Assembly: GCA_964430365.1 (NCBI GenBank)
Contig: CAYSEU010000002.1
Coordinates: 1 to 30,440 of the forward strand
Direction of reading: 5' to 3'
From: an uncultured Candidatus Saccharibacteria bacterium
Lineage (GTDB): Bacteria > Patescibacteriota > Dojkabacteria > SC72
DNA length: 30,440 nucleotides
The position numbers were made by a program, and so were the translations under genes. Shown here one piece after another: positions 1 through 23,948 of this stretch. Below the pieces are notes generated by a model that saw only the letters and a list, made by a program, of their open reading frames with translations, had not been told where the DNA came from and did no database searches. Position 1 is the first letter of the stretch. Every line of letters begins with the position of its first letter.

Positions 1-29
1 AACTTATGGAATTAGAAGATGAAAAGTAA
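1..29 (+). CDS. 3' end of an upstream gene (...LMELEDEK*), possibly prfA
   Basis: The open frame from position 3 ends at TAA 27-29 and overlaps the prmC ATG at 19. Identity as prfA is inferred only from the common prfA-prmC linkage. Confidence 0.3.
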
Positions 30-3257: not shown

Positions 3258-3287
3258 ATTATATTCCCCTTAAGGATATAATTACAA
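3258..3287 (-). promoter_or_regulatory. sigma70-type promoter for the S41-HtrA pair
   Basis: TTGTAA (3287-3282), 18-nt spacer, TATAAT (3263-3258) on the minus strand. Confidence 0.55.
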
Positions 3288-4289
3288 ATCTATAAATTCT
3301 AATAGACCAATATGTATTAGTGAAGTACCTCTCTTACCAAAATCTACTAAAGCGAAACCACTCTCCTCATCAAACTCTAATACTTTTCCAATATATCCAT
3401 ATGTTAAAAAGGAACGAGATATTACACTCTGATTTGTGTACTGTTTAACAAACCACCCCTTATGATTAATATCCAAATTAGCAAGAATATATAGTTGATT
3501 TTGCTTACCATCTAAGATAACGAATTTGTTTCTTAAAGATACAAATCTTTTTAGGAAAGCATTATCACAATGTACAGAACCAAAACCTCCTAGAATCATA
3601 ATGGGTAATCCTATCTCTCTAAACTCTGTATATGACATAGCGTATGTTAATACAGCTATAGCCCCTCTCTCAAATAACTCTATAGCTACCCTATTGTATA
3701 GATATGGACCTACCCATACAATCTTGCCCCTATAATCATCCTCTAAACCTTTCTCAGTTAATACTGTATTACCATCTCCAAGTATCTCCAAATTACCAAA
3801 CAGTCTCTCTTGGGTTTTACTACTTACTACCCCATCTACACATATTACATCAGTACTAATGAGTAACCCTTCTATTGGATCTATACCTTTTACTGTTCCT
3901 GTGAAATCACTCACTACAGTTGACTTCCTTTCTTCTCCTAAGATATCAATATACCCCTGCTTCATCCTAGATAAATCTATAATCCCACTAACAGGAGAAA
4001 ACAGTTCGAACATATTTAGACCTCCAGAAGAAACTCTTTGTGCTAGTAACTCGCCCTCTTCAATATACTCTCCATCCATTCTTAGTACATACTTCTCACA
4101 ATCTTCATTCTTACAGTTTAATACCTTAGAAATACTAAGAGATTTTTTTAGTGTACTTTCAGACTTTTCTAAAAGGATATCACCTTCCTTAATCTTTTTA
4201 CCTTTAAACATAACTCTGTCCCCCTGCTTAAGAGGAATACTAAATTCCCAATCTTTATATTTTTCAAATATCCTACTCCTTATCTCCAT
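3282..4289 (-). CDS. Hypothetical protein with barrel-sandwich-hybrid-like repeats and an SH3/KOW-like C-terminus (partner of the GlmL-like gene)
   Basis: 335-aa ORF overlapping the upstream stop by 17 nt. Motifs GEYIEEGELLA and SPVSGII resemble biotinyl/lipoyl-type hybrid barrels. Resembles the uncharacterised partners of GlmL-like genes (from recall). Confidence 0.55.
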   Translation of the reverse strand: MEIRSRIFEKYKDWEFSIPLKQGDRVMFKGKKIKEGDILLEKSESTLKKSLSISKVLNCKNEDCEKYVLRMDGEYIEEGELLAQRVSSGGLNMFELFSPVSGIIDLSRMKQGYIDILGEERKSTVVSDFTGTVKGIDPIEGLLISTDVICVDGVVSSKTQERLFGNLEILGDGNTVLTEKGLEDDYRGKIVWVGPYLYNRVAIELFERGAIAVLTYAMSYTEFREIGLPIMILGGFGSVHCDNAFLKRFVSLRNKFVILDGKQNQLYILANLDINHKGWFVKQYTNQSVISRSFLTYGYIGKVLEFDEESGFALVDFGKRGTSLIHIGLLEFIDL

Positions 4290-5616
4290 TACCCCATATT
4301 CTTAATTTAACCCTATTCTCATGTGCGGATGGTCCATACACTATTGGCCTACTCCTCCCATCTACAACAAGATATTCATACTCTAGTATCTTTTTAGAAG
4401 ATATGTACTGTACCTGTTTAAATGGTAAATGAGAAAAAACAGTACCATTCTTTAGCTCTCCTTCTATTAGTAATTTTTCATCCCTTTGAGGAAGTTTAAA
4501 TATTTCTAAAGAAGAACCTAAGGAGTAAATCTCTTGTGGTTCTAACAGTTGAGAATATATCTTCGCAGAAAATATTATCTTACTCTTAGCCTTAGAAGGT
4601 ACCTCTGGTATTAGGAGTTTAATAGCTTTAGGTAATATATCTCCCTTAAGTACTACAATATTTTGAGACTCTTCTTTCTCAATCATGCTCTTCCCAAAGG
4701 TATACAGCTTACTATCCCTATCTATGAAGATATCAAATACTCCATCTAACTCTAATCCATCTATTACACAAAAGAGTAATTCCCTAAGTTGTAGTAAATT
4801 GGGGACTTTACCAGTAAGTATGATAGCTGTATTACTCTTACCAATTCTCTCATACTTTTTCCTATTACTCTGTTTAACAGAGAGTATTTGTAAGGTTGTA
4901 AATGCCCTAATTACATCACTTAGTAAAGAATCAGTAATATATTCATATCCATGTGCTATACAGTTAGCCCATCTATTTGAAATCTCTTCAGAGGATGAAT
5001 CTATAGAAAGAAAAGCATTTAACTTAGAACTCTTAACAAAATCTATTAACCCTATCTCATTACCCCAATCTATCTTAGAAGAAGAGAATCTTACATTCCC
5101 CTCTTTATTATTCTTACCTCTATATATCGAGAAATGAGAGAAATCTAAATCTAGCCATATGATATCATCATACTCTAACCTATCTACTAATCCCTTTATT
5201 AATACTTCCATATACCTATCATCTAATATCCTAAGTACAATATCCTTAGAAAACTCTTTTAAAGAAAAATATATGTTTTTAAAGAAAGCTTGATTATCAT
5301 CAACAACAACCTTAATACCGGATACCCCCATCTCTTCCCTTTCAAAATCCTTAACCCTAAAATCTTCACTCCACTCCCTATCTACAATATCCCAATCAAA
5401 TACTTTCTCTAAGGAATCAAAATATTCAAACCAGAAATTTTTAGTAAAAACACTATCATCTAATCTAAACTTCAAAGGAGAAAGGTCTGTTCTATCTGAA
5501 AGTATATATGTTTTTTGAGCAGAAAGATCTGTATATGCTAAATTAGCGTATATATAGTTATCTTTTATTAATATAGAAAGATATGCATTTTTCTTTAATA
5601 CAGGCAGTGTATCCAT
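4273..5616 (-). CDS. Divergent glutamate mutase L (GlmL/MutL, actin-like fold) family protein
   Basis: Segments IILTG...IDGLELDGVFDIFIDRD..L..FG and VVDGRSRP...RVKLRIW match the C-terminal signature of GlmL-like proteins as I recall it. Start set at ATG 5616 because the longer ORF runs into the rpsR terminator. Confidence 0.5.
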   Translation of the reverse strand: MDTLPVLKKNAYLSILIKDNYIYANLAYTDLSAQKTYILSDRTDLSPLKFRLDDSVFTKNFWFEYFDSLEKVFDWDIVDREWSEDFRVKDFEREEMGVSGIKVVVDDNQAFFKNIYFSLKEFSKDIVLRILDDRYMEVLIKGLVDRLEYDDIIWLDLDFSHFSIYRGKNNKEGNVRFSSSKIDWGNEIGLIDFVKSSKLNAFLSIDSSSEEISNRWANCIAHGYEYITDSLLSDVIRAFTTLQILSVKQSNRKKYERIGKSNTAIILTGKVPNLLQLRELLFCVIDGLELDGVFDIFIDRDSKLYTFGKSMIEKEESQNIVVLKGDILPKAIKLLIPEVPSKAKSKIIFSAKIYSQLLEPQEIYSLGSSLEIFKLPQRDEKLLIEGELKNGTVFSHLPFKQVQYISSKKILEYEYLVVDGRSRPIVYGPSAHENRVKLRIWGNGDKE

Positions 5617-5624
5617 TACAAAAT

Positions 5625-5633
5625 AGTTTACCA
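5625..5633 (-). promoter_or_regulatory. Extended -10 promoter 8 nt upstream of the GlmL-like ATG
   Basis: TGG-TAAACT-N8-ATG on the minus strand. Confidence 0.45.
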
Positions 5634-5648
5634 GTAAAAGAGAAATTT

Positions 5649-5677
5649 TAAAACAAAAAGAGGCCATAAGGCCTCTT
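5649..5677 (-). terminator. Rho-independent terminator of the rpsF-ssb-rpsR operon
   Basis: Perfect 8-bp stem AAGAGGCC-TTAT-GGCCTCTT followed by TTTGTTTT on the minus strand, about 20 nt after the rpsR stop. Confidence 0.85.
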
Positions 5678-5698
5678 AATTTTACTAACTAATTACAC

Positions 5699-6052
5699 TT
5701 AAACATCCTTAGCTACATATGGTAAAAGTGCCATGTATCTTGCTCTCTTAATTGCACTTTTCAATTGCTTCTGATGCTTATGACATGCCCCTGATTTCTC
5801 TACAGAGATTATCTTACCTCTCACAGATGTGAACTTCTTTAATTGATATACATCTTTGTATGACACACTCTTTACACCAGAATCACACAATGGACATGAA
5901 AGATTTTGTACAATCTTTCTTCTTCTTCTCTGTTTCTTCTTTCCACCGTAGGTATCATCACTCTCTTCTTCCGTAACTACCTTCTCATCAAAAACATCAT
6001 CCAAAGAAGGAGTAACTAAACTCTTCTTTTCTATTATTTTCCCTTCCTCCAT
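5699..6052 (-). CDS. rpsR: 30S ribosomal protein S18 (zinc-binding form) with acidic N-terminal extension
   Basis: CPLC...SYKDVYQLKKFTSVRGKI...GACHKHQKQLKSAIKRARYMALLPY; position after rpsF-ssb. Confidence 0.95.
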   Translation of the reverse strand: MEEGKIIEKKSLVTPSLDDVFDEKVVTEEESDDTYGGKKKQRRRRKIVQNLSCPLCDSGVKSVSYKDVYQLKKFTSVRGKIISVEKSGACHKHQKQLKSAIKRARYMALLPYVAKDV

Positions 6053-6071
6053 TACACAGTATTAATACAAA

Positions 6072-6539
6072 TTAAAATGGTAAATCAGTATCCTCTAAAG
6101 GATCTTCATCTGTAGCCTCTACCTCTGGGACCTCTTCCTCTACTTCTACTTCCTTTTCCTCAACTTCTTCTTTCTGTTCATCTAGACCTGCACCCTGCTT
6201 ACCTTTACTATCCAAAAGAATCATATCATCTACTCTAATCTCAGTTTTATACCTTGTAGAGCCATCCTCTGCTTCCCATGATCTGGTAGTGAGAGATCCT
6301 TCTACATATATCTTCATACCCTTTGCTAGTAACTGTTGGCATATTTCAGCCATCTTATTCCAAGCAACAATATTATGAAACTCTGCAACTTCCTTAGTCT
6401 CTCCATTTTGATCTTTCCAAGATCTATTAGTTGCTAAACCAAATGTTACTACTGGAGTTCCACCAGTGGTATATCTTAACTCTGGTTCCCTAGTTAAGTT
6501 ACCTATCAACTGAACTTTATTTAAAGACCTTGCTGACAT
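6072..6539 (-). CDS. ssb: Single-stranded DNA-binding protein
   Basis: LNKVQLIGNLTREPELRYT, EFHNIVAW, acidic tail ending DLPF. Confidence 0.97.
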   Translation of the reverse strand: MSARSLNKVQLIGNLTREPELRYTTGGTPVVTFGLATNRSWKDQNGETKEVAEFHNIVAWNKMAEICQQLLAKGMKIYVEGSLTTRSWEAEDGSTRYKTEIRVDDMILLDSKGKQGAGLDEQKEEVEEKEVEVEEEVPEVEATDEDPLEDTDLPF

Positions 6540-6603
6540 TTTTTTGTGTATATAAATTTAACTTACCTTTAATATTAACAGCCAAAGATTAAAAAATATT
6601 GAA

Positions 6604-6960
6604 CTAAACCTCTATCTCTTTTTTCTTTATACCCTTACCCACTAATGCTGGATTATCAACCTCTATTATCATAAACCTAAGTATCTCCTGCTTTAATTGT
6701 AATAACCTTTTCATCTCATTTATATTCTTAGGAGTATGTTTAAAGTTATAAACAATGTAATACCCTTCGTTATGACCATCTATTTTGTATGAGAGATATC
6801 TTTTACCCCATACATCTACATCTAAAACCTCTCCACCATCCTTACTCATGAGTTCTGTAAACTCCTTATGTATACTCTTTCTTAAATCATCAGGTAACAA
6901 AGGTTTAAGTGCTACCATTAACTCATATGTTTTTAATTTTACATCTCTTTCTATCAACAT
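6604..6960 (-). CDS. rpsF: 30S ribosomal protein S6
   Basis: KTYELMV, VDVWGKRYLSYKI, GYY, ILRFMI; first gene of rpsF-ssb-rpsR. The exact start is uncertain. Confidence 0.95.
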   Translation of the reverse strand: MLIERDVKLKTYELMVALKPLLPDDLRKSIHKEFTELMSKDGGEVLDVDVWGKRYLSYKIDGHNEGYYIVYNFKHTPKNINEMKRLLQLKQEILRFMIIEVDNPALVGKGIKKKEIEV

Positions 6961-6993
6961 CTAAATATATCTATATTTTAACTTAGCGAATGG

Positions 6994-7022
6994 ATTTTAT
7001 CAGAAAAAATCACAGATTACAA
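6994..7022 (-). promoter_or_regulatory. sigma70 promoter of rpsF-ssb-rpsR
   Basis: TTGTAA (7022-7017), 17-nt spacer ending in TGA, TAAAAT (6999-6994): both a -35 and an extended -10. Confidence 0.65.
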
Positions 7023-7027
7023 TTCTA

Positions 7028-8152
7028 TTAAGTATTAGCCAAAATTACAATATATTCACCATCCTTAACTATGTACTCTTTCCCATGATTCCTAATTAAA
7101 CCCTCCTCCTTAGCCCTATTCCATCCACCAATATCAATCATATCATCTACATTAACTACATCTGCTGTGATGAAGTTTTTACCTAGATCGGTGTGTATTA
7201 CACTAGCAGCACTCTTAATATTAGCACCATTTTCAATACTCCATGCGTTACACTCCTTTTCAGAACCAGTATAGAAAGTTATTAGATTTAACCTATGATA
7301 CGCACTCATAATGACATCTTCTACTGTAATAGGTTGTTTACCCAATAACTCTATATATTCATTTAACTCTTGCTCTTCCATACTAGCTAAATCAGAGAGT
7401 AATTTTACATCTACCTCTAATATATATGTGCGATCAGTATCACCAGATATCTCTCCTAATTGTTTCTTCCACTCTTCCATCTTTTCTTCTTCTAAACCCT
7501 CTTTACAGTTAAGTATAAATACCCTCTGCTTATTAGTAAGTAACCATAACTCCCTTACAATATCCCTTTGCTCACCTGTAAGCTTTATATCAATCGCTGG
7601 GATACCCTCATTTAACCCCTTAAGTACACTTTGAAGTGTATCTAACTCTAACTGCATTTCATCTGTTATACCTGGTCTAGAGTTCCTCTTAACCGTACCA
7701 TATCTCTTCTCTACACTCTCAATATCTTTAATTATTAATTCTGATTGAACAATCTCAAAATCATCTACTGGATCTACCCTGTTATACACATGTACAATCT
7801 CTTCACTTTTAAATGCTCTTAATACATAGAGTATTACATCTACCTCTCGAATATGAGAAAGGAACTGATTACCTAATCCTTCACCTTTAGATGCTCCCTT
7901 TACTAACCCTGCAATATCTACAAATGTCATTGCAGAGGGCACAACCTTTTGTGCTTTAAAAAAGCTTGCCATTCTCTCTAACCTCTTATCTGGTATCTCC
8001 ACTACTCCAACATTCTTATCTATCGTACAGAAGGGATAGTTTTGAGCAGGTACAGATTTTTTAGTCAATGCATTAAAAAGAGTACTCTTACCTGAATTTG
8101 GTAATCCAACAATACCTAGTGATAGTGTATGTGACCTTGTAACACTTTCCAT
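7028..8152 (-). CDS. ychF: Ribosome-binding ATPase YchF
   Basis: GIVGLPNSGKSTLFNALT, NYPFCTID, FVDIAGLVKGASKGEGLGNQFL, C-terminal TGS-like domain (ASVIHTDL...YIVKDGE). Confidence 0.96.
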   Translation of the reverse strand: MESVTRSHTLSLGIVGLPNSGKSTLFNALTKKSVPAQNYPFCTIDKNVGVVEIPDKRLERMASFFKAQKVVPSAMTFVDIAGLVKGASKGEGLGNQFLSHIREVDVILYVLRAFKSEEIVHVYNRVDPVDDFEIVQSELIIKDIESVEKRYGTVKRNSRPGITDEMQLELDTLQSVLKGLNEGIPAIDIKLTGEQRDIVRELWLLTNKQRVFILNCKEGLEEEKMEEWKKQLGEISGDTDRTYILEVDVKLLSDLASMEEQELNEYIELLGKQPITVEDVIMSAYHRLNLITFYTGSEKECNAWSIENGANIKSAASVIHTDLGKNFITADVVNVDDMIDIGGWNRAKEEGLIRNHGKEYIVKDGEYIVILANT

Positions 8153-13982: not shown

Positions 13983-15395
13983 TTACAACATATGCTTAGC
14001 TTCATCCAACAATTTCTCTTTTGTATTCATTAAAGGATCCTCAATAACTATATCTAGTAATCTTTTTAATATACTTCCCATCTGAGGACCAGGTTTAACA
14101 CCAATACTTTGTAAATCCTCTCCCTTAATATCTAAGTCCGTAACCTTTAATACCATATCCTGTGCTCTTACCCTAGAAATATGTCTCTGTAACTCAGTAA
14201 TTTCCTCTGGTTGAAAAGGTGAATTAGGATTAGATGTAGCATCCGCTATTCTTAATTTAAAAAGGTCTTCAACATTCTCTTCCCCTACCCTATTTAAAAA
14301 TCTTCTAACAGCAGAATCACTCCACTGACTTAAAGAAATCTCTCCCTCTTTCTTACTTTCTAGTTGAGAATGAGGATAGTAGAACATATGGTTGCGAACC
14401 AATAGCTTAGTTCTCTCTATCTCCGATTTAGAAAACTTTAAACGCTTCATAATATCCTCAACCATTCCCATACCTACAACATCATGACCATAGAAATGAC
14501 CATTACCCATATCTGTTCTAGGTTTAGCAATATCATGTAGTAATGCAGCTAATTTAACAGAATCTTCGGCAAAATCACATGTTCTTAAACTATGTGTATA
14601 TACATCGTGAGCATGAAAGAGCTTCTGTTCAACACCATATCCCTCCAGTAACTCAGGAAGGAAGATATTTAACAGTCCTGTTTGTCTCATTAGCTCTATC
14701 CCCTTAGAAGGCTTAGGAGAATTTAAAAGTAATTTCATAAATTCGTCCCTAATTCTTTCCATAGATACCTGTTTCGCTATAGGTAAACTTTGCTTAATAG
14801 CATTGAAAGTCTCTCCCTCTATTTCAAAATCTAACTGAGAGGCTAATCTACAAGCCTTAAAAGCCCTTAAACCATCCTCTTTGAATCTTTCAATTGGTGT
14901 ACCTACAGCCCTAATTAATTTCATATTAATATCTGTAATACCACTAAAAGGATCATGTATATCCCACTCTCTTTCTACCTCTTCTCCATCTAAAAGGTCA
15001 GAAGAAAGATCCAGTGCCATGGCATTAATTGTGAAATCTCTCCTTCCTAAATCCTTATCCAAATCATTTACAAACTCTACCTTACTAGGCCATCTACCAT
15101 CTATATACTCCGCTTCACTTCTAAAAGTAGTAACCTCTACCTCTCTATTCTCACCATCAATATCTTCTACTAGAGCTATTACAGTGCCAAACTTTGCCCC
15201 AGTAGAAACAGCTTTAGGAAAAAGTTCTAACATCTCATCTGGAAGCGCATTAGTAGCTAAATCAAAATCATGGGGCTTTTTACCCATAACGATATCTCTA
15301 ATTGCTCCCCCAACAAGATATACATCATATCCTTCTTTAGAAAGTATTCTTGCTACCTTCTGTACATATTTGGGAATTGTAAACTTTATTTTCAT
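13983..15395 (-). CDS. cca: Class II tRNA nucleotidyltransferase (CCA-adding enzyme) with HD domain
   Basis: VGGAIRD...DFDLAT, EYIDGRWP flexible loop, RRDFTINA, EDGLR, HD domain (HDVYTH...LLHDIAKP). Start has an AAGGAG Shine-Dalgarno and an ATGA overlap with the upstream stop. Confidence 0.9.
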   Translation of the reverse strand: MKIKFTIPKYVQKVARILSKEGYDVYLVGGAIRDIVMGKKPHDFDLATNALPDEMLELFPKAVSTGAKFGTVIALVEDIDGENREVEVTTFRSEAEYIDGRWPSKVEFVNDLDKDLGRRDFTINAMALDLSSDLLDGEEVEREWDIHDPFSGITDINMKLIRAVGTPIERFKEDGLRAFKACRLASQLDFEIEGETFNAIKQSLPIAKQVSMERIRDEFMKLLLNSPKPSKGIELMRQTGLLNIFLPELLEGYGVEQKLFHAHDVYTHSLRTCDFAEDSVKLAALLHDIAKPRTDMGNGHFYGHDVVGMGMVEDIMKRLKFSKSEIERTKLLVRNHMFYYPHSQLESKKEGEISLSQWSDSAVRRFLNRVGEENVEDLFKLRIADATSNPNSPFQPEEITELQRHISRVRAQDMVLKVTDLDIKGEDLQSIGVKPGPQMGSILKRLLDIVIEDPLMNTKEKLLDEAKHML

Positions 15396-16567
15396 TTTAT
15401 TAATCTCCTTAATAGATAGTACCAAAGTAGAGGGAATACAACAAGAAAAGGAAACATATTAATACTTGTTTGGGGTAATTTTTTAATACCTAGAACTTCC
15501 CCACCACTCTCTTCTACCTCTATAAATACATCCTCCTGAGCTGTATCTTCCTCAATCTCTTCTAATATAATCTCTCCACTGTACAACGTATACGGTATTC
15601 TTGTAACACAGAAACTATCCATATGTGGCTTAACCCTTGAACCAATATATGATAGATATTCACTATCCTTTTCTCTTACACCCGCAACTATTACAGACTC
15701 TCCAACATAGTTAGATTCCATATGTTCACCTTTCACTGCACACTGTTGATTTTCGTTAGGATCATATATCCCTGCATACCCTAAATTTAAACTCTCCCCT
15801 ACCTCTAACTCATACTCATATATATATTCTTCGTTAGGATTAAAATCTCTTACTAACGAATACTGATTATGAGTAAAGACAGTATCTTTTAATGGAATAT
15901 CTGAATCGTTTCTTACATATACCCTTACTAAGACGGATTCCTCATTCCTTTGTGCTTCCCACTTTATAAACTGAAGGGCAGGTCTAACATATACCCTATC
16001 TAGTATCATTCCTCCATCAAATCCCCCTCCATTCTTAACTACTCCTACACCTGGATATGTCTTTACTATCCCATCTCTTGGATAGTTGTAGATTATATAT
16101 TTAATAGGGATACTCTCATACTCTCCATCTATATACAAAAGCTCTCTTAAATCTCCATTAGTAATATCCTGCTTGGAAAGTAATACCTTCAAGGAAGTAA
16201 CATTTATATCCTCCCCTACCCTATTCTCCGACCAATATATGAAATCTAAAGATGAGTATGGTGGAAGAGCAACCCTATCATACACATTCCAATTTCTAAC
16301 TAATCCATACCTCCAATCATCATCTGTTACATCTGAAATATTAATATGTGAAAGTATCCAACTACTACTAGTGCCTGAAACTTTAGATATGTCATACTCA
16401 ACACAGTTAGAACACTTTTCACTTTCTAAAAGATCTCCAATACCATATCCTAATGTATCAAAATACCTATTGTATGTAATATCTCCATCATTAGAGAAGT
16501 AAGAGTCTGCGAAAACAGTATTTATACATAAAAAGAGTAAAACAAAACAAAGTAAGATCTTTCTCAT
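15392..16567 (-). CDS. Secreted hypothetical protein with C-terminal LPxT-type sorting-like tail
   Basis: Signal peptide MRKILL...TVFA; acidic linker; EVLG..KLPQTS, then a hydrophobic stretch and RRLIK. Confidence 0.65.
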   Translation of the reverse strand: MRKILLCFVLLFLCINTVFADSYFSNDGDITYNRYFDTLGYGIGDLLESEKCSNCVEYDISKVSGTSSSWILSHINISDVTDDDWRYGLVRNWNVYDRVALPPYSSLDFIYWSENRVGEDINVTSLKVLLSKQDITNGDLRELLYIDGEYESIPIKYIIYNYPRDGIVKTYPGVGVVKNGGGFDGGMILDRVYVRPALQFIKWEAQRNEESVLVRVYVRNDSDIPLKDTVFTHNQYSLVRDFNPNEEYIYEYELEVGESLNLGYAGIYDPNENQQCAVKGEHMESNYVGESVIVAGVREKDSEYLSYIGSRVKPHMDSFCVTRIPYTLYSGEIILEEIEEDTAQEDVFIEVEESGGEVLGIKKLPQTSINMFPFLVVFPLLWYYLLRRLIK

Positions 16568-16624: not shown

Positions 16625-17479
16625 TTAAATATTCCTTTCCCATTTTTTACGATCTATCCTATCTAACTCTAGACCTTTTTGAAGAATGCTAACTAAGATA
16701 ACTACAAACATAATTGCACTCACTCCAAATATTACAAAATCATACTGAGTTAACCAGTGTCCGTATACATCAAAATATTTAACAGGGAGAAAGAAAAGAA
16801 CGATAGTAAATATTATCCCTATTATCCTCATTTCAGTTGGACCAAATAGCCCAAATGAGTATTTAAATTCATTCTGAACATATGTTACTAATTCTACATG
16901 GGCCATTAAAACCAGATACATTATTCCAAAAAGCATAGCAATCTCTATCTTTACATATCCAGAGAGTCCTAACCCCAAACTAAATATTATTACAGCAACA
17001 CTATCAACAATATGATCTATGTAATACCCAAAGTTAGGCCTAGTCCTTTTCCTATACCTTGCTAAACTACCATCAAAGCTATCTCCAAACCAATTAAGAA
17101 ATAGCCCAATTATTACAAGCACAAGGTAGTAATGATTCATAAAACCTAAGATAAAACCCATTGCGGTCATAACATAGCCAATAATACCCAACCCTGTTAA
17201 AAGGTCTGGTGTAACCCACATAGGAATCCTTGGACATATCCACTCTTTAGCTTTCTCTTCCATATTAGCAGTAATGCCCGTATTTATTGCATTTTGATCA
17301 TCCCTTCTATACTCTACTTTCAACTTACTAATCTGTTCTCTAATTTCCCTTTCTAATGTTTTATTAAAACCCATTGTAACCCTATCTATAAATTCTTCGA
17401 CAGATTTAACATCAAAAATGTTAAATTCATGCTCATCTTTCTTCCTATTCTCATTCCCATTATTTTTTATTCCGAACAT
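16625..17479 (-). CDS. CDP-alcohol phosphatidyltransferase family protein
   Basis: Signature D-x2-DG-x2-AR-x8-G-x3-D-x3-D (DSFDGSLARYRKRTRPNFGYYIDHIVD); several TM helices; TPDLLT motif. Confidence 0.9.
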   Translation of the reverse strand: MFGIKNNGNENRKKDEHEFNIFDVKSVEEFIDRVTMGFNKTLEREIREQISKLKVEYRRDDQNAINTGITANMEEKAKEWICPRIPMWVTPDLLTGLGIIGYVMTAMGFILGFMNHYYLVLVIIGLFLNWFGDSFDGSLARYRKRTRPNFGYYIDHIVDSVAVIIFSLGLGLSGYVKIEIAMLFGIMYLVLMAHVELVTYVQNEFKYSFGLFGPTEMRIIGIIFTIVLFFLPVKYFDVYGHWLTQYDFVIFGVSAIMFVVILVSILQKGLELDRIDRKKWERNI

Positions 17480-17511
17480 CTATTTCAAACCTATTTAATT
17501 TAGATAAACAT

Positions 17512-17520
17512 ATTATATCA
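17512..17520 (-). promoter_or_regulatory. Extended -10 promoter for the phosphatidyltransferase gene
   Basis: TGA-TATAAT on the minus strand, 32 nt upstream of the ATG. Confidence 0.55.
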
Positions 17521-17805
17521 AATTCTGTCCATCAAGGGTCTGCCCTAGCCCTATCCCCATTCAGATTATTAACCATCTACAAATTCCACAATCTCAAGAA
17601 AACAAACCCAACCTTTATACCTAGCCAAAATCAACAAGATGGTAAAAAATAGTTTGTATTTTTGGTCGAAGAAACGCATAAAGGTTGTACCAAATATTGT
17701 TATAACAGTCTTTGTACTAGAAAAAGAGGGACAGATCTAGGACAAACCTCCTCTACTCTAATTTATTGATAACAGTATCTATACATGATAATTTATATAT
17801 TAGAG

Positions 17806-18417
17806 ATGAGATTAAAAGCACCTGCCCCATTGGGTGAAAGTGAAACAAAAAAACAGTCCTCTATCAATCAATCTACCCAGGTGTATCAAAATAACGAAAT
17901 AAAACAGAATATACTGCCCCCTACAACCCAAATAAACCTTAAATGGTTAAAACTTCCTAAAATAAATATACCTTGGTTAAAATTACCAAAGCTTAATATC
18001 CCCTCACAAAAAAAGAGAATGATAACAGAAATATCACTAATAGCAGTTCCCTCTCTTTTACTATTAATACTTACAATAATGATAATATCTTTCGTTAAAT
18101 CAGAACCATATAGAATGACAAGGGAATTCTTGGAGAAAATTGATAATGGAAATACCGTTGGAGCATATGATATGACTACTGATGCGTATAAATCTGCTAA
18201 GAGTTTAAAAGATTTTAAAGAGATAGTAAACAAACTAAACTCTGTAGATATATCCCACCCAGAAGAGAAAGATAGATATATAGAAGAAATACCTGGCATG
18301 GGACAGTATGCTCATGTAAAGTATAAAATCTCAGGATATTATGTTGATATTACTGTATTCAACGATAAAATAGATTGGGGGATACACTCTGTTACACTAT
18401 CTCTTATCAATCAGTAA
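17806..18417 (+). CDS. Single-pass membrane hypothetical protein with a small extracytoplasmic alpha/beta (NTF2-like?) domain
   Basis: Low-complexity N-terminus, one TM helix (ISLIAVPSLLLLILTIMIISF), then REFLEKIDNGNTVGAYD. ATG 17806 is preferred over 17785 because TTGATA-N17-TAATTT lies at 17766-17794. Confidence 0.6.
   Translation: MRLKAPAPLGESETKKQSSINQSTQVYQNNEIKQNILPPTTQINLKWLKLPKINIPWLKLPKLNIPSQKKRMITEISLIAVPSLLLLILTIMIISFVKSEPYRMTREFLEKIDNGNTVGAYDMTTDAYKSAKSLKDFKEIVNKLNSVDISHPEEKDRYIEEIPGMGQYAHVKYKISGYYVDITVFNDKIDWGIHSVTLSLINQ
17944..18003 (+). repeat. Imperfect 30-nt tandem repeat encoding WLKLPKINIP / WLKLPKLNIP
   Basis: tggttaaaacttcctaaaataaatatacct / tggttaaaattaccaaagcttaatatcccc. 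Confidence 0.75.
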
Positions 18418-19493
18418 TTAAGAGATATAGCCCTCTCTTTATAGAAGTTTTCCAATCCCAAAGTTATTAACCTATCTATTACCTTAGAATACGGCATACC
18501 ACTCTCTTCCCACAATTTCGGAAACATACTAATGGATGTAAATCCAGGGATAGTATTTACCTCATTAACAAATACTCTACCATCTTTTAATAGGAAGAAA
18601 TCTACTCTGGCAAATCCTTCACATCCTAATACTTCATATGCTTTTCTTGCCATAAACCTTATCTCATCACTTTTCTCTTTATCTATATCTGCAGGGATAA
18701 TAATCTTGGCACCATCCTTTTTAATATATTTAGCCTCATATGAATAGTATTCATCATTAGGAATTATTTCTCCTAAACATGAAGCCTTAGGTACCTTATT
18801 ACCTATTACACCACACTCTATCTCCCTACCTTCGATAAGTTCTTCTATTAAAACCTTCTTACCATATTTAAAAGCTTTTTTAATATTAACTGTCAAAGTT
18901 ACAGAGTTATTAATCTTACTAGTACCAATAGAAGACCCTGAATCTGCCGGTTTAATGAAAGCTTTTGTACCAAACTTGAAAAGTATCTCATCATTATTAA
19001 CCCTCGTAATATTAGAATATGCTATATAGTCTACAATAGGAATACCTGCATCTCGCAGTAATCTCTTTGTTACATCCTTATCCATACATATTGCAGAACT
19101 CAATACAGAAGAACCCACGAATGGGACATTTGCTATCCTTAATAACCCTTGTATAGAGCCATCTTCTCCATATGTACCATGTAAGACAGGAAATACAATA
19201 TCCACTATTTCTTTTTTTGAAGGGTTAGTAATATTGTATATCTCACCATTAGATTGAGGTAAGAATATTACTCTATCCGTAGTAGTTCGAATTGGTCGAG
19301 AAGCGCTTTTATTTTCTAAAAAATATTTAATGTCTTGTAAAAACCATTCCCCCGTCTTAGTAATACCTATTAGAACAATATCATATTTATCCTTATCAAT
19401 AGCTCTAACAACATTTCTAGCAGATTCTAAAGACACAGAATGTTCTGCAGATTTTCCACCGTATAGTATTGCAACTTTTATCTTCTTTGTCAT
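18411..19493 (-). CDS. ddl: D-alanine--D-alanine ligase (DdlA-like)
   Basis: YGGKSAEHSVS, FPVLHGTYGEDG, MDKDVTK, FIKPADSGSSIG, YSYEAKY, EVNTIPGFT. The true start is ATG 19493 (AAGGA SD); the longer ORF runs through the tRNA. Confidence 0.93.
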   Translation of the reverse strand: MTKKIKVAILYGGKSAEHSVSLESARNVVRAIDKDKYDIVLIGITKTGEWFLQDIKYFLENKSASRPIRTTTDRVIFLPQSNGEIYNITNPSKKEIVDIVFPVLHGTYGEDGSIQGLLRIANVPFVGSSVLSSAICMDKDVTKRLLRDAGIPIVDYIAYSNITRVNNDEILFKFGTKAFIKPADSGSSIGTSKINNSVTLTVNIKKAFKYGKKVLIEELIEGREIECGVIGNKVPKASCLGEIIPNDEYYSYEAKYIKKDGAKIIIPADIDKEKSDEIRFMARKAYEVLGCEGFARVDFFLLKDGRVFVNEVNTIPGFTSISMFPKLWEESGMPYSKVIDRLITLGLENFYKERAISLNY

Positions 19494-19519
19494 ATTGAAA
19501 ATATCCTTATATTTAATGA

Positions 19520-19606
19520 CGGAGAGAGTGGGATTCGAACCCACGGTACGGAAACCCGTACAACGGTTTTCAAGACCGTCACTTTCGACCACTCAGTCAT
19601 CTCTCC
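19520..19606 (-). tRNA. tRNA-Ser (anticodon UGA), no encoded CCA
   Basis: Acceptor stem GGAGAGA/TCTCTCC, D-arm ACT..AGT, anticodon stem ACGGT-CTTGAAA-ACCGT, long variable arm GTACGG-GTTT-CCGTAC, T-arm GTGGG-TTCGAAT-CCCAC, discriminator G followed by TCA. Confidence 0.97.
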
Positions 19607-19616
19607 ATTGCCACAA

Positions 19617-19647: not shown

Positions 19648-19676
19648 TTGACTAAACCGTATATCTTACATATCAT
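19648..19676 (+). promoter_or_regulatory. sigma70 promoter of the surface-protein cluster, leaderless geometry
   Basis: TTGACT (19648-53), 17-nt spacer, TATCAT (19671-76), 7 nt, ATG 19684. Confidence 0.7.
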
Positions 19677-19683
19677 CATATAT

Positions 19684-20877
19684 ATGCCCAAAATATTAAA
19701 AATGGTTTTTACAATATATATATGTATATTACCTACCCTTCTTTTTGCTGCAGAATTAGATTCTACTAATTACAAAATAGTGGGTGCTACTACCAAAGGA
19801 GGATCTATACTTGAGACAGCAAGTGGAGATTACTCTGCCCTACTTGAAGTAGGAAGAATATCAAATAATCCAAGAAATTACTCTAACAGTTATAAAATGC
19901 TAACAAGTCCAGAGCAAGCATTCCTGCCTGCAGTACCCGAAGTATCATGCTTTGAAACTACTACTTCAGGATCTTCTAGCTGTACTACCGGACCAACAGA
20001 GCTATCTACAGGAGGTATGGTAGCAATATGTGGACCTAGTGGTTGCTATGATAAAGCAAGGTTTGAAATTGATACTAATGGTAACCCAATAGATACCCTT
20101 TACGCTGTAATGATATCTACTGACAATTTTGTATCCGATATTAGATACGTAGATGGTTCATCCCTCTGGCCAGAGAGTATAAGTACACATAACCTAAGTG
20201 ATTTCTTAACAAAGACAGATTGGGAAATACCAGATTTTAATATACAAGGCCTTCAAACAGCTACCACCTACTATATTAGGATATTGGCTTTACATGGTGA
20301 CTTTACTCAAACAGAACAAGGTCCCATTGCTAGTGCAACTACTTCAGCAGGATCTGTATTTTTTGATATAGATATTGATGATGAGACCGGAATAACTACA
20401 GAGACCGTATCTCCATATACAATTTCTTTTACAGGAGCATATGAATTAATTGGAGGAACTGCTCCTACTACAGCTCAAAACAGAATCTGGATAGATGGAG
20501 CAACGAACTCAGAGGGAGGATTTGCAATAATTGTAAGAGGAGTAAATGGAGGTTTAAAGAGTGATACTACTGGACAAACAATAGTATCAGCTACTGCCGA
20601 TTTAAATACTGCTGCAGATGGTTTTGGAATACAAAGCGAGTATATAGATTATGATACTTATCCATATTTAGGATCTATTACAGCTACTACAGATTACAGT
20701 GGAACAGGAAACTATGTAGGAATAGTTGGAACTACTGCCACCAAGGTTTATGAATCAGAGTTACCTGTATTTAATGGAAGAATGGCGTTAAAGGTAATAG
20801 CAAAACCAGGTATGGATAAGGTTGCTGCTACTGACTATCAGGAGACCATATATTTTGTATTAATTCCTAGATTTTAA
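19684..20877 (+). CDS. Secreted multidomain beta-rich protein (FN3-like domain plus WxL/pilin-like C-terminal domain)
   Basis: Signal peptide MPKILK...TLLFA; FN3-like segment GLQTATTYYIRILA; ends YQETIYFVLIPRF; no TM anchor. The upstream part of the computed ORF (19330-19683) is spurious. Confidence 0.6.
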   Translation: MPKILKMVFTIYICILPTLLFAAELDSTNYKIVGATTKGGSILETASGDYSALLEVGRISNNPRNYSNSYKMLTSPEQAFLPAVPEVSCFETTTSGSSSCTTGPTELSTGGMVAICGPSGCYDKARFEIDTNGNPIDTLYAVMISTDNFVSDIRYVDGSSLWPESISTHNLSDFLTKTDWEIPDFNIQGLQTATTYYIRILALHGDFTQTEQGPIASATTSAGSVFFDIDIDDETGITTETVSPYTISFTGAYELIGGTAPTTAQNRIWIDGATNSEGGFAIIVRGVNGGLKSDTTGQTIVSATADLNTAADGFGIQSEYIDYDTYPYLGSITATTDYSGTGNYVGIVGTTATKVYESELPVFNGRMALKVIAKPGMDKVAATDYQETIYFVLIPRF

Positions 20878-20880
20878 CTA

Positions 20881-20909
20881 TTGACACCATGCTTAAGAGA
20901 ATGTAAATT
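20881..20909 (+). promoter_or_regulatory. Near-consensus internal sigma70 promoter upstream of the 372-aa secreted protein
   Basis: TTGACA (20881-86), 17-nt spacer, TAAATT (20904-09). Confidence 0.7.
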
Positions 20910-20956
20910 GTATTATAGAAAATAAATATGAACTCTAATTTTTTAATCTGCCCAAT

Positions 20957-22075
20957 GTGAAGAGTCTGAAAACCAGTTTGAAGATAGTAGTCCCAACCCT
21001 ATTTTTAGTATTCTCTACGGCCTTCTTTATAGTGTTCTCTGCACAGGCAGGTACATTAGCTGCTGTATATATATTCATGAGTAGATTAAAGGCAGGTTTA
21101 GATGGAACAGGTCCTAACACAGTACAATTTATACTCGCCATTGATACAGCAACAACTATTCCTACAGCAGGTACAATTAAAATAGAGTTTCCAGATGATG
21201 AAGACGCTACATGGTGTAGAACAGCTGGAGCTTTAACTGTAGCTGGAGTTACAGCATCTGCGGTAGATTTAGCAGGAGGAAACTGGGATATTGATAGCGC
21301 ACTACCAACATCTGGTGTACTTAGTGCTGCATGTTCACAAGGTGGCATTGGTACTGTAGACACTATCACTATCTCTAATGTTGGTGCATTAACTGCAGGT
21401 ACTACATATGGAGTACAGATTTCAAATAGCGTTGGAGTCATAGGTACTAATGGAACAACGGGAGAACACGAACTTACAATTACCGCTGCTTCTGGAGCAA
21501 CTATGGATTCAAAATCATTCAAGGTATATCTTTTAGGTGATGACGCTGTCGTAATTACTGCAACAGTATCTGATATGCCAACTGTTGTTTGTTCTATTAG
21601 TACAAATACTGTAAATCTTGGTACCTTATACCCAGGTGGTGCATATGCAACTGGAACTCATACGATTAGTACTTCCACAACCTCAAGTGGTTACTACTGG
21701 GCTGTATATGGAACAGGAGATAGTTCAACAGATGCTGGTTTGTATAAATCTACGGTTACTACACATTTGATTGCTTCCGGTGCAACAGCTACACTTGATC
21801 TTACTAATGCAACAATCTCTGGATTTGGTTTAACACTTTCAGATCCTGACTCAACAGATCCTGCAACTGTAGCTACAAACTTTGTAAATACAACAGCTGG
21901 TACATTCGGAACAATAGATAGATTGTACTCTGGTGCTAAATTAGTACTATCACAATCTGGTACACAAGGCTCAGCAGAAAACTCTACTGTTACATATGGT
22001 GCGAAAGCAAGCTCCTCGGCTCCAGCAGGTTCATACCAGGAGACTGTATATTGGATATGTGGTGGTTACTACTAG
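20957..22075 (+). CDS. Secreted Thr/Ala/Gly/Ser-rich two-domain protein with WxL/pilin-like C-terminal domain (candidate major surface subunit)
   Basis: GTG start; signal peptide ending AQA; four Cys; internal VVITATV strand; C-terminus APAGSYQETVYWICGGYY; no TM anchor. Confidence 0.6.
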   Translation: MKSLKTSLKIVVPTLFLVFSTAFFIVFSAQAGTLAAVYIFMSRLKAGLDGTGPNTVQFILAIDTATTIPTAGTIKIEFPDDEDATWCRTAGALTVAGVTASAVDLAGGNWDIDSALPTSGVLSAACSQGGIGTVDTITISNVGALTAGTTYGVQISNSVGVIGTNGTTGEHELTITAASGATMDSKSFKVYLLGDDAVVITATVSDMPTVVCSISTNTVNLGTLYPGGAYATGTHTISTSTTSSGYYWAVYGTGDSSTDAGLYKSTVTTHLIASGATATLDLTNATISGFGLTLSDPDSTDPATVATNFVNTTAGTFGTIDRLYSGAKLVLSQSGTQGSAENSTVTYGAKASSSAPAGSYQETVYWICGGYY

Positions 22076-22093
22076 TAATTGATATACTTGAAC

Positions 22094-23068
22094 ATGAGAT
22101 TTACTCGATTCATGAAATATAACGGAATATTATTACTGCCCGTAATAATACTTCTCCTGAGTGTTCACCCTCTTTTTGCTCAAACCTCTCTATCAATAGG
22201 CGTTGCTCCTACTTCTAAAGTTTTAAAACTAAGCCCAGGAGAAACCTACTCTGATGAAATAGTATATTGGAATCTATCTCAAGAAGCAGGTACCTACCGT
22301 GTCTTTATTAGTGGCTTCCAACAGATAGAGAATCAACCAGGTACCGCTGTCATTTTAACAGAAGAAGAAGATGCCCTTGTCGATTACTCTGCTTCAAAAT
22401 GGGTTACAGTATCCAAAGATATTCTAGAATTAGAACCTAATAAAAATATTAAATTACAATACACTATTAAAGTACCTACAGACACTACGAATGGAGAGTT
22501 TAATGTAGAGATATTTCTAATTTCTGAAAATGCTTACCAGCAACAAGGTACAGCAGCATTTACCAATCTTGCTGCAGGAACCCCTATACTAATACAAATT
22601 GGAGATGACTATGTTCAGAATGCAGAATTACTCAGGTTTATTGCAGACAAAAAAGTATATGAAAAGATAAATGTAGACTTCTTAACCACTATTAAAAACC
22701 TTGGTGACATGCATATAACCCCTACAGGAGAGATATTAATAGAAAATATCTTTGGACAAGAGGTAGCTAGAATCCCCTTTAATAAGAATGCTAAAAGCCT
22801 TCTTAGAGACACATTAGGAAACTATACCGATAATTGGACTCAATCAGGATACTTATCTCCTAACAAGGCTATAGCAGTTGGCCCTATGAAAGCCAAATTA
22901 ATGGTTACATACAGAAGCTTTCAACCCGGTTTTGCAGTCTTAGGTAGTGAAGCAACCTTCTGGATAATTCCATGGAAGATTATTCTTGCTATCCTTGCTG
23001 CTATTCTTCTTGTTATAATAGTTAGAATAAATAAGAAGAAAATAAATAGAAAGAATGAAATTTCTTAA
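22094..23068 (+). CDS. Membrane-anchored DUF916/DUF3324-like (WxL-interacting or chaperone-like) protein 1
   Basis: Signal peptide; GVAPTSKVLKLSPGETY...N; second domain IKNLGDMHITPTGEILIENIFG; FWIIPW followed by TM and a basic tail. The start could be 22079, 22094 or 22112. Confidence 0.6.
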   Translation: MRFTRFMKYNGILLLPVIILLLSVHPLFAQTSLSIGVAPTSKVLKLSPGETYSDEIVYWNLSQEAGTYRVFISGFQQIENQPGTAVILTEEEDALVDYSASKWVTVSKDILELEPNKNIKLQYTIKVPTDTTNGEFNVEIFLISENAYQQQGTAAFTNLAAGTPILIQIGDDYVQNAELLRFIADKKVYEKINVDFLTTIKNLGDMHITPTGEILIENIFGQEVARIPFNKNAKSLLRDTLGNYTDNWTQSGYLSPNKAIAVGPMKAKLMVTYRSFQPGFAVLGSEATFWIIPWKIILAILAAILLVIIVRINKKKINRKNEIS

Positions 23069-23948
23069 AATCCTTATTACAGCAGCCTTTATATATACCT
23101 TGCTTGGTATTCCTCTACTCTATGCAAGTAGTAGTATTGATCCTGCAATTAGAAGAATTACACTTGCTCAAGGTGAAAGAATGTTTGGTAGTGTTGTATT
23201 TAAAAATGGAGAAAACAAAGATATACAAGTCTTACTTACACCATATACTTACAACCCCAAAACAGATGAGATTACAGAAGATAAGAGGAATATCTTTCTT
23301 AAAGTAGATACTGATAGTATAAAAGTAAAAGCCAATTCTTCATACAATATTAAATATGAGATACTACCCCTTAGTAACTTACCAAATGGAAGCTACTTTA
23401 ATATACTAGCTATTACACCAGTTACTGATTCTAAGAACGTAAAAATAAATCTAAGTATATCTCAATTAATAATATTAGATATAGTAGACCCCAATGACCA
23501 AGTAAGGGGTATTACAACTACGCAGTACTCTACACAAATAGAAGTTAAAAGAAGAGGAATCCCCTTTATACTACCCACTATACTTAAATACAGTATAAAG
23601 AATAATTCTAACTACCTTCTTACACCCCAAGGAAGAATGGATGTATTCAATGAGAGAAATAGCTACCAACCAACATACCTTTACCTCAATGAGGAGAAAA
23701 AAGATATATACCCAGGAGAGACATTAGAAGGAGAGATTAAAATACCTACTTGGTATATACAAGATCTCTTTATTAAAAGAGTTGTAAAAGCACAAGTATA
23801 TAATGGTGTAGATAATAATGCTCAAGATATAGAGATAGAGATTAATAATTACATATTTGAATTAATTGCCTTACTAATAGTAATAATAATAGGTATACTA
23901 CTTTCCAAATCTATAGTAGAAGATTTTTCTAAAAAGAGAAAAACTTAA
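23055..23948 (+). CDS. Membrane-anchored DUF916/DUF3324-like protein 2 (paralog of the upstream gene)
   Basis: Signal peptide; IDPAIRRITLAQGE...FKN; IKNNSNYLLTPQGRMDVFN; C-terminal TM and basic tail; overlaps the upstream gene by 14 nt. Confidence 0.55.
   Translation: MKFLKILITAAFIYTLLGIPLLYASSSIDPAIRRITLAQGERMFGSVVFKNGENKDIQVLLTPYTYNPKTDEITEDKRNIFLKVDTDSIKVKANSSYNIKYEILPLSNLPNGSYFNILAITPVTDSKNVKINLSISQLIILDIVDPNDQVRGITTTQYSTQIEVKRRGIPFILPTILKYSIKNNSNYLLTPQGRMDVFNERNSYQPTYLYLNEEKKDIYPGETLEGEIKIPTWYIQDLFIKRVVKAQVYNGVDNNAQDIEIEINNYIFELIALLIVIIIGILLSKSIVEDFSKKRKT

Follow-up and report, generated by a model that had tools for sequence, protein, structure and literature searches.

A four-gene cluster of Candidatus Dojkabacteria (WS6) is probably a minimal Pam-type pilus system without usher or sortase

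We analyzed a stretch of 30,440 nucleotides of contig CAYSEU010000002.1 (assembly GCA_964430365.1), hereafter the window, in which four plus-strand genes, g1 to g4, lie nearly abutting at positions 19684-23948; the remaining genes of the window are mostly on the minus strand. The closest named homologues of all four products belong to Candidatus Dojkabacteria (candidate division WS6), which is part of the Candidate Phyla Radiation (CPR), and CPR bacteria are monoderm. We conclude with good confidence that the cluster encodes a minimal Pam-type pilus, i.e., a surface fibre that would be assembled with the help of chaperones but with neither an usher nor a sortase. Judged by homology, the cluster is a member of the Pam pilus kind and a minimal variant of it in a new lineage. 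The points that are new here are the Dojkabacteria lineage, the minimal four-gene set, the adhesin-like nature of g1 and the homology between the chaperones of this system and the WxL-interacting proteins (WxLIP) of Firmicutes.

Pam pili are thin filaments composed of PamA and PamB, which were analyzed by cryo-electron microscopy in Ca. Mycosynbacter amalyticus, a parasitic member of the Saccharimonadia (Troman et al., bioRxiv 10.64898/2026.03.03.709456). According to that study, Pam pilins consist of an N-terminal sandwich domain, a donor linker and a truncated immunoglobulin (Ig)-like C-terminal domain (CTD). The operon also encodes PamC and PamD, which are FimC/PapD-like chaperones with a C-terminal transmembrane (TM) helix each, as well as PamE, the tip pilin PamT and the RbmA-like membrane anchor PamR; an usher is absent. 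The initial annotation of the cluster mentioned similar hypothetical clusters in other CPR genomes but no functional characterization of them. That statement is superseded, because Troman et al. (2026) solved the PamA/PamB filaments and proposed the same mechanism, and the novelty of the cluster is therefore much lower than was assumed at the time.

Results

Homology of the four proteins to the Pam system

The homology to the Pam system was established through one reference locus, L082, and through profile comparisons. L082, from a Saccharimonadales metagenome-assembled genome (MAG), is a pam operon according to the NCBIfam models available for this system (NF058578 for PamR, NF058579 for PamT, and NF058581 or CPR_Pam_pilin_C, which has a cutoff of 55 bits): NF058581 gives 162 bits for its pilin, and the PamR model gives 261 bits (E 9e-78) for an adjoining gene. 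BLASTP aligned g3 with the TM chaperone-like product of L082:7866-8861 (26% identity over 281 residues, E 6.8e-29) and g4 with that of the other TM chaperone-like gene of this locus, L082:5259-6188 (E 3.4e-8). These matches are reciprocal, an indication that the two types of chaperone arose before the lineages diverged.

For the secreted proteins g1 and g2, we used an alignment of CPR Pam-pilin CTDs that was built without g1 and g2 and that contains the L082 pilin (6786-7841). Using hhalign, the g2 family aligned with it over 155 columns (probability 96.2%, E 2.1e-9), from residue 200 to the last residue, 372, and the g1 family aligned over 147 columns (81.8%, E 1.1e-5), from residue 237 to the C-terminus at 397. 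In addition, g2 matches the L082 pilin in BLASTP (E 8.8e-4), and its residues 215-372 match positions 2-148 of the 148 positions of NF058581 with 17.6 bits (E 0.0031). This model is matched by 12 of the 34 members of the g2 family, with a best E of 1.7e-6, all of them under the cutoff, and the PamT model NF058579 is matched weakly by six of the 34 g1 orthologues (best E 1.1e-5). When g1 and g2 were compared directly by BLASTP, only the terminal strand aligned, and the match is not significant (E 0.16). Their relatedness is therefore based on the matches of each to the third-party alignment of CPR pilin CTDs.

Organization and conservation of the cluster

The genes g1 and g2 are separated by 79 nucleotides and g2 and g3 by 18, and g3 and g4 overlap by 14. 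Independent gene calls on near-identical metagenome contigs gave identical products of 372, 324 and 297 residues for g2, g3 and g4. For g1, the start that yields 397 residues is backed by database homologues of 397-401 residues; a longer open reading frame (ORF) that begins mechanically at 19330 crosses the adjacent tRNA-Ser and Ddl genes. Near the N-terminus, each of the four products has a hydrophobic stretch and then an A-x-A-like site, as in a signal peptide. Only g3 (about residues 292-316) and g4 (about 263-290) have another hydrophobic helix, near the C-terminus, with a basic (Lys/Arg) tail behind it. The proteins g1 and g2 end in a strand common to both, ...ATDYQETIYFVLIPRF and ...AGSYQETVYWICGGYY, respectively (also written DYQETIYFVLIPRF and SYQETVYWICGGYY). 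These data agree with the initial annotation, which had described four closely spaced genes in one orientation, all for proteins with signal peptides, and had noted that the first two are without a TM anchor and end in the same strand. It had also reported that an usher and a sortase are missing, and indeed neither was found in the four genes or among those ORFs of the window that were covered by the Pfam scan or assigned from synteny. The window contains no sortase gene, and neither it nor the regions around the syntenic loci contain an usher-like ORF.

When species-representative genomes were scanned with the g3 family, 426 relatives were obtained, from which 80 loci were kept, about 65 of them of Dojkabacteria type. 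A survey of synteny, which the initial annotation had named as a check, came out in its favour: the four genes occur together in the order g1-g2-g3-g4 in nearly all of the 65-70 or so Dojkabacteria/WS6 loci whose contig is long enough, at identities of 26-89%. On contigs of 730-760 kb, the cluster is located at the same place, adjoining genes for an RNase HII-family protein, cysteinyl-tRNA synthetase (CysRS), RecR, YbaB and DnaX. The flanks of the window cluster are housekeeping genes too (Ddl, tRNA-Ser, RNase HII-family, CysRS, RecR, YbaB, DnaX and the CCA-adding enzyme). Because the gene order recurs across Dojkabacteria loci, the arrangement is not due to chance, and the conserved order together with the same genomic place shows that the four-gene unit is real and vertically conserved. 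Scans for promoters and terminators gave fewer matches than shuffled controls (for the promoter consensus, 10 in the region versus a mean of 18) and are thus uninformative on operon structure.

One Dojkabacteria locus (L054) contains two tandem g2 genes, at 5484-6614 and 6740-7870, between g1 and g3; both are 59-60% identical to g2 of the window.

The candidate shaft pilin g2

The AlphaFold2 model of g2 (predicted local distance difference test, pLDDT, 84) contains two all-beta domains, with strands at residues 36-193 and 210-370, connected by an unstructured linker (194-209) of low confidence. This architecture of two domains and a linker agrees with that expected of a Pam pilin. The hydrophobic part of the linker, AVVITATV, aligns with the linkers QITITASV and QVTVSATV of other CPR pilins. 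Cysteines 87, 126 and 212 are invariant and Cys368 is nearly so; the four could form two disulfide pairs. Foldseek with full-length g2 returned tandem Ig folds, including CfaE, SafDAA and CfaB, with TM-scores of 0.14-0.25 when normalized to the query, a result that supports an Ig-like two-domain fold for the model but no specific family. Pfam searches with the g2 family gave just scattered weak matches to Ig-like and CsgC domains.

The CsgC matches form an observation of their own. Eleven of the 34 g2 relatives weakly match the curli chaperone model CsgC (NF007507, best E 5e-4), and four match Pfam Tafi-CsgC. These matches probably reflect nothing beyond an Ig-fold likeness of the N-terminal part of g2, in which Cys87 and Cys126 are invariant.

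The membrane-anchored chaperone-like proteins g3 and g4

In its AlphaFold2 model (pLDDT 82.6), g3 forms two beta-sandwiches and a helix at residues 294-323. The first sandwich ends with a disordered loop (151-159) and, after it, a strand (162-169), i.e., at the position that the F1-G1 loop and the G1 donor strand occupy in PapD-like chaperones. The top Protein Data Bank (PDB) matches in Foldseek were WxLIP of E. faecium, bound to a long WxL protein (9i25_C, E 2.3e-12), and 9i1y, followed by the chaperones CfaA (1.5e-9), CsuC (1.5e-8) and DraB, with TM-scores of 0.47-0.51 normalized to the target, and also by RbmA. The tandem Ig-like fold of g2, the two sandwiches of g3 and the matches of the latter to WxLIP and to CfaA, CsuC and DraB are in line with the folds that had been anticipated from the letters.

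The relationship to PapD is one of fold likeness only, to CfaA, CsuC and DraB: the Pfam models PapD_N and PapD_C are matched neither by g3 nor by its family. Pfam gave no match for g1, g2 and g4. Sequence searches of PDB chains with g1, g2 and the profiles A1 and A3 returned nothing useful, the PDB copies used here evidently lacking the filament structures of Pam, and the g3 profile reached EfmWxLIP1 at just E 0.45.

The initial annotation had regarded g3 and g4 as paralogues built of two beta domains and a TM segment at the C-terminus, and the family profiles and TM segments bear this out. Pairwise BLASTP between the two gave 21% identity and an E of 0.57, which is not significant, but hhalign of the two families gave probabilities of 91-96% (E 1e-6 to 1e-8) over 194-227 columns, and it is this family-profile alignment on which their paralogy is based. 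The motifs P..+.L..GE...N and IKN....TP.G....N are in register in it. A full HMMER search of 1.84 billion representatives, taken from clusters at 50% identity, showed that the chaperone family comprises 5123 clusters at E<=1e-3; with E<=1e-10 as the limit, there are still 2203. A C-terminal hydrophobic segment is present in 114 of the 123 top matches of 280-460 residues.

The link between the chaperone-like proteins and WxLIP

WxLIP is interpreted as a peptidoglycan- and host-binding protein; it has a disordered hairpin that is predicted to become a strand completing the WxL sandwich (Hassan et al. 2023, PMC10599100). Besides the structural match described above, g3 matches the Pfam model WxLIP_PGBD (DUF916, PF06030) with an E of 0.0028 and 18 bits versus a gathering score of 27.3, and 31 of the 32 members of its family match this model weakly. 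The second domain of g3 is not matched by Pfam DUF3324. When the 123 top matches of the chaperone family were aligned together with g3, 69 of these 124 CPR sequences matched PF06030 (best E 8.5e-12), and one of them has the NCBI name 'DUF916 domain-containing protein [Patescibacteria group bacterium]'. As a Firmicute reference we used eight annotated plasmid WxL loci of Enterococcus, Bacillus, Lactococcus, Companilactobacillus, Pontibacillus and Listeria. In hhalign, the eight WxLIPs of these loci matched the g3 family with 89.5% (E 1.9e-6), the g4 family with 94.8% (E 5.4e-8) and the wider CPR chaperone family with 99.1% (E 7e-19) over 257 columns that span both domains. Homology of the g3/g4-type chaperones to Firmicute WxLIP (DUF916/DUF3324) is well supported by these profile alignments and by the predicted fold.

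Neither Troman et al. (2026) nor Hassan et al. (2023) mentions the other system, and the homology of the chaperone to the anchor therefore appears to be a new connection. A literature search of incomplete coverage found no paper that ties WxL/WxLIP to chaperone-usher systems or PapD, and nothing on pili of Dojkabacteria.

The subunits were a different case. The initial annotation had drawn its analogies with WxL clusters and with chaperone-usher systems for subunits and anchors alike. The analogies hold for the anchors, since the best PDB match of g3 is WxLIP, followed by CfaA, CsuC and DraB. For g1 and g2, their description as WxL-like domains is unproven: the W-x-L tripeptide is absent from both, PF13731 (WxL) gave no match even at E<=10 among 20 CTDs, and hhalign of Pam CTDs against WxL was not significant, the best P being 0.003 (probability 11%) for essentially the last strand, with 0.09 for g1, 0.19 for g2 and 0.2-0.6 for controls.

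The candidate tip adhesin g1

The domain borders of g1 and its two-domain architecture are derived from alignments. Its N-terminal half is variable in composition. A Laminin_G_3/ConA-like lectin domain (LamG; PF13385, E 1e-18 to 1e-21) of about 220 residues is inserted between positions corresponding to g1 residues ~131 and 134 in about one tenth of the orthologues listed, several of them from Dojkabacteria. The resulting proteins are 620-636 residues long (P0283, P0293, P0302, P0311 and others; loci L010, L036, L051, L055, L061 and L068). One orthologue shows a weak fn3 match. To judge from these sequences, the insert looks like a swappable module, as expected of a receptor-binding subunit. 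The families of g1 and g2 were also aligned as profiles; in this alignment, which is weak (hhalign probability 4.4%, E 0.009), a polar stretch of g1, G.T.ES, with the invariant Glu240, is opposite the hydrophobic g2 linker, here VVVSATVS. With low to moderate confidence, we propose that g2 is the polymerizing shaft pilin and that g1 is a host-binding subunit at the tip which accepts the strand of g2. The placement of g1 at the tip is based on the polar character of the segment aligned with the g2 linker, the modular N-terminal half and the PamT-like scores of the g1 family.

Related loci in other CPR lineages

In CPR3, Nomurabacteria, Saccharimonadales and other loci of CPR type, each locus has one to three g3-like TM proteins, whose genes always adjoin genes for secreted proteins of 221-2058 residues, and these secreted proteins all end in [ST]xTxTY[IV]C/A...[FY].

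Some of the secreted proteins are giants (2058 and 941 residues): those of the Nomurabacteria loci L079 (589-6765) and L080 (754-6936) and that of L073 (653-3478). They carry a Pam-type C-terminal domain and strand (ETSITYIAVPVY and ETKVTYILTGTY) and are encoded directly upstream of TM chaperone-like genes. From its occurrence there, the pilin CTD seems to be a module through which surface proteins of very large size are attached.

Accessory genes were seen in several distant loci of CPR type (e.g., L071 8270-9982, L083 8372-10171 and L072 2124-2900), where a gene for a conserved secreted protein that ends in TDFSIMM[YF]CWTG, as well as genes for small TM proteins, come after those for pilin and chaperone. 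These accessory genes are not described in the Pam paper and are absent from the Dojkabacteria cluster.

The record titles of L073-L076, L078, L083 and many of L004-L069 read 'uncultured Gammaproteobacteria', 'Candidatus Nanoarchaeia archaeon' or 'uncultured Candidatus Saccharibacteria'. The genes on these mis-titled contigs are closest to those of Dojkabacteria or other CPR bacteria, and the record titles of these MAGs are unreliable for taxonomy.

Features of the cluster and of the surrounding window

The coordinates of the genes, domains and other signals are listed in Table 1.

Table 1. Coordinates of the g1-g4 cluster, its predicted protein segments and adjacent features in the window
Feature	Residues	Position	Strand	Remarks
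Extra ORF		17785-18417	+	210 residues, single TM segment, no Pfam match
D-Ala-D-Ala ligase (Ddl), extra gene		18411-19490	-
tRNA-Ser(TGA), extra gene		19518-19607	-
Promoter-like site		19648-19676	+	TTGACT-17 nt-TATCAT, just upstream of g1; weak evidence
g1		19684-20877	+	397 residues, ATG start; candidate tip adhesin or PamA/PamT-like pilin
g1 signal peptide	1-23	19684-19752	+
g1 N-terminal segment	24-133	19753-20082	+	four invariant Cys
g1 FN3-like segment	134-220	20083-20343	+
g1 polar linker	221-236	20344-20391	+
g1 Pam-type C-terminal domain	237-397	20392-20874	+
Second promoter-like site		20881-20909		upstream of g2; weak evidence
g2		20957-22075	+	372 residues, GTG start; candidate shaft pilin, PamB-like
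g2 signal peptide	1-31	20957-21049	+
g2 N-terminal beta-sandwich	32-193	21050-21535	+
g2 inter-domain linker	194-209	21536-21583	+	putative donor strand GDDAVVITATVSDMPT
g2 Pam-type C-terminal Ig-like domain	210-372	21584-22072	+
g3		22094-23068	+	324 residues counted from ATG; mechanical ORF start is TTG at 22079
g3 signal peptide	1-29		+
g3 beta-sandwich domain 1	30-144	22181-22525	+
g3 disordered loop and strand	145-170	22526-22603	+	putative G1-like donor element
g3 beta-sandwich domain 2	171-291	22604-22966	+
g3 TM helix and basic tail	292-324	22967-23065	+
g4		23055-23948	+	297 residues
g4 signal peptide	1-24		+
g4 domain 1	25-120	23127-23414	+
g4 G1-like strand region	121-145	23415-23489	+
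g4 domain 2	146-262	23490-23840	+
g4 TM helix and tail	263-297	23841-23945	+

Compared with a syntenic Dojkabacteria contig of 734 kb (L003, 6570-7600), the window has extra genes at 16625-19607, between the gene for a CDP-alcohol phosphatidyltransferase and g1. Further upstream, a minus-strand gene at 15392-16567 encodes a secreted protein of 391 residues with the signal peptide MRKILLCFVLLFLCINTVFA and without a Pfam match. Its C-terminus, ...KKLPQTS-INMFPFLVVFPLLWYYLL-RRLIK, is a sortase sorting signal of the LPXTG type (LPQTS), and the gene is unrelated to the cluster. In L001 and L003, the corresponding place two genes ahead of the cluster is likewise taken by a gene of similar size without a Pfam match. 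Finally, two adjoining, overlapping minus-strand ORFs at 3282-4289 and 4273-5667 (335 and 464 residues), upstream of rpsR-ssb-rpsF, show no Pfam match and no obvious signal peptide or TM segment and are candidates for conserved hypothetical genes.

Discussion

The initial annotation had proposed a fibre or adhesin that membrane-tethered chaperones assemble or display without an usher. In the main, this proposal is borne out by the homology of the tethered chaperones and the subunits to the Pam pilus and by the predicted folds; polymerization, the donor strands, the roles of tip and shaft, anchoring by the chaperone and attachment to a host are features that we infer. In the mechanism we envisage, all four proteins would be exported by the Sec pathway and their signal peptides cut off, and g1 and g2 would fold with a C-terminal Ig-like domain that is short of one strand. 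The proteins g3 and g4, held in the cytoplasmic membrane by their C-terminal helix, would cap the open groove with the loop and strand that end their first domain, by donor-strand complementation. The linker (AVVITATV) of an incoming g2 would then oust the chaperone strand from the preceding subunit, and repeated donor-strand exchange of this kind would give rise to a linear g2 shaft, with g1 most likely at the tip as the host-binding subunit. Because there is no PamR-like terminator or anchor nearby, the last, basal subunit probably remains capped by the membrane-anchored chaperone, which would double as the anchor of the fibre.

Several observations weigh against a Pam-type pilus. No homologue of PamT, PamR or PamE is encoded within the window; the PamR-like protein of L082 has no BLASTP match within +-8 kb of the cluster in the about 65 Dojkabacteria loci, and no PamT-like genes were found in these flanks. 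The score of g2 on NF058581 is below the curated cutoff of 55 bits, and g1 itself gives no match to the NCBIfam Pam models. The families of g1 and g2 are barely alike (hhalign 4-8%). Moreover, a conservation analysis indicated that the linker of g2, the putative donor strand, is no more conserved than the rest of the protein.

The alternative that survives best is a display system of the WxL/WxLIP (Csc) type, in which g1 and g2 would not polymerize but would be monomeric adhesins or binding proteins, held at the surface by strand complementation from g3 and g4. WxLIP is currently read as an anchor and stabilizer of WxL proteins that completes their sandwich with its own strand, and the homology of g3 and g4 to it (9i25_C in Foldseek, E 2.3e-12; 89.5%, 94.8% and 99.1% in hhalign) would fit such a role, as would the presence of two anchors for two subunits and the lack of tip and terminator genes. 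However, the CTDs of g1 and g2 are homologous to those of Pam pilins, which polymerize, g2 keeps a hydrophobic linker at the position of the Pam donor strand, and the cluster has neither subunits with a W-x-L motif or a PF13731 match nor an LPXTG partner. We consider a display system of this kind unlikely. It is very improbable that the four genes encode unrelated beta-sandwich proteins of the envelope (S-layer-like, nutrient-binding or associated with the cell wall) that resemble pilus components only through the ubiquity of the Ig fold: integrins, RbmA, carbohydrate-binding modules of sialidases and ciliary proteins are also among the Foldseek matches, and all Pfam and NCBIfam matches of the four window proteins are under the curated cutoffs, but g3 and g4 are tied to pam-operon chaperones at the sequence level (E 7e-29 and 3e-8), the CTDs of g1 and g2 match those of Pam pilins with their C-termini in register, the four genes are co-inherited in the same order, and other CPR lineages always have both types of protein adjoining.

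We thus favour a minimal Pam-type pilus. A broader view, possible although in our judgement short of likely, is that Pam pili and WxL/WxLIP clusters are two branches of an ancient chaperone system of monoderms that works without an usher. WxLIP would then be a tethered PapD-like chaperone and anchor instead of a protein that binds peptidoglycan and the host, the WxL domains would be diverged subunits complemented by a donor strand and related to the Pam pilin CTD, and the Dojkabacteria cluster would be a minimal form in which the chaperone serves as the anchor of the fibre. The half of this view that concerns the chaperones has good support (hhalign 99.1%, E 7e-19, and the top Foldseek match), whereas the subunit half is only hinted at by the shared motif of the last strand (P 0.003).

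The present analysis extends a recently discovered type of pilus, studied experimentally in one species of Saccharimonadia, to Dojkabacteria/WS6. Two pilins and two tethered chaperones may be the functional core, and they would be the smallest gene set for a heterologous reconstitution of usher-free donor-strand assembly. How such a fibre would end and be anchored in the absence of PamR is a question that the cluster poses as well. The lectin-like module, which looks swappable, makes g1 a specific candidate for the factor that determines host recognition in a lineage of uncultured episymbionts. Finally, the homology to WxLIP provides a hypothesis that can be tested for the function, long in question, of the WxL/Csc clusters of enterococci, lactobacilli, Listeria and Bacillus, namely donor-strand complementation by a tethered chaperone.

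Comparison with known systems

The Pam system of Ca. Mycosynbacter amalyticus and the Dojkabacteria cluster, the latter known here from its genes alone, are both restricted to CPR bacteria, and all of their components are exported by Sec. Each encodes a pair of PapD-like chaperones that are paralogues and have a TM helix at the C-terminus, as well as two distinct pilins in one operon, and both lack an usher, a sortase and an ATPase. The two differ in lineage, as Dojkabacteria appear in neither the Pam paper nor its supplement, and in gene content, the Dojkabacteria cluster having four genes only. Furthermore, the ATP synthase/CorB/MFS (major facilitator superfamily) neighbourhood of the Pam operon is replaced by housekeeping flanks, the sequences are too diverged for the NCBIfam cutoffs, and the N-terminal half of g1 is rich in cysteines and FN3-like and has, in some species, a Laminin_G_3 insert.

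Sortase-assembled pili of Gram-positive bacteria are likewise fibres of Ig-like subunits on a monoderm cell, a parallel proposed here from the genes. Neither g1 nor g2 has a C-terminal LPXTG with a hydrophobic tail or a pilin motif, the LPTSG of g2 being internal, and, in contrast to sortase pili, the linkage between the subunits would be non-covalent.

With the alternate and archaic chaperone-usher systems (CfaA/CfaB/CfaE of CFA/I, CsuC/CsuA/B, DraB), g3 shares the boomerang-like two-domain fold, and the subunits share an Ig-like fold and a conserved C-terminal strand with a Tyr near its end; donor-strand complementation and exchange are presumed to be common to both. The g1-g4 system differs in that there is no outer membrane and no usher, and in that the chaperone is tethered to the membrane instead of being soluble in the periplasm. 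Its pilins have two domains and no Pfam fimbrial match. Chaperone-usher pilins donate an N-terminal extension, whereas by analogy with Pam the donor strand of g1-g4 would be the linker that joins the two domains.

WxL proteins are regarded as peptidoglycan binders that do not polymerize, and the small LPXTG protein of WxL clusters was not found among the four genes. The WxL/WxLIP clusters (Csc) of Bacillota (Siezen 2006; PMC10599100; PDB 9i1y, 9i25) have an anchor that resembles g3 and g4 in its signal peptide, its two Ig-like sandwiches and its C-terminal TM helix. Like g3 and g4, WxLIP is encoded beside secreted subunits without a TM anchor and is predicted to complete the subunit sandwich with a strand, and the last strand of the subunits is alike as well, AGxYxxTxTYI in the Pam CTDs and ATxYxTTLTWxL in WxL.

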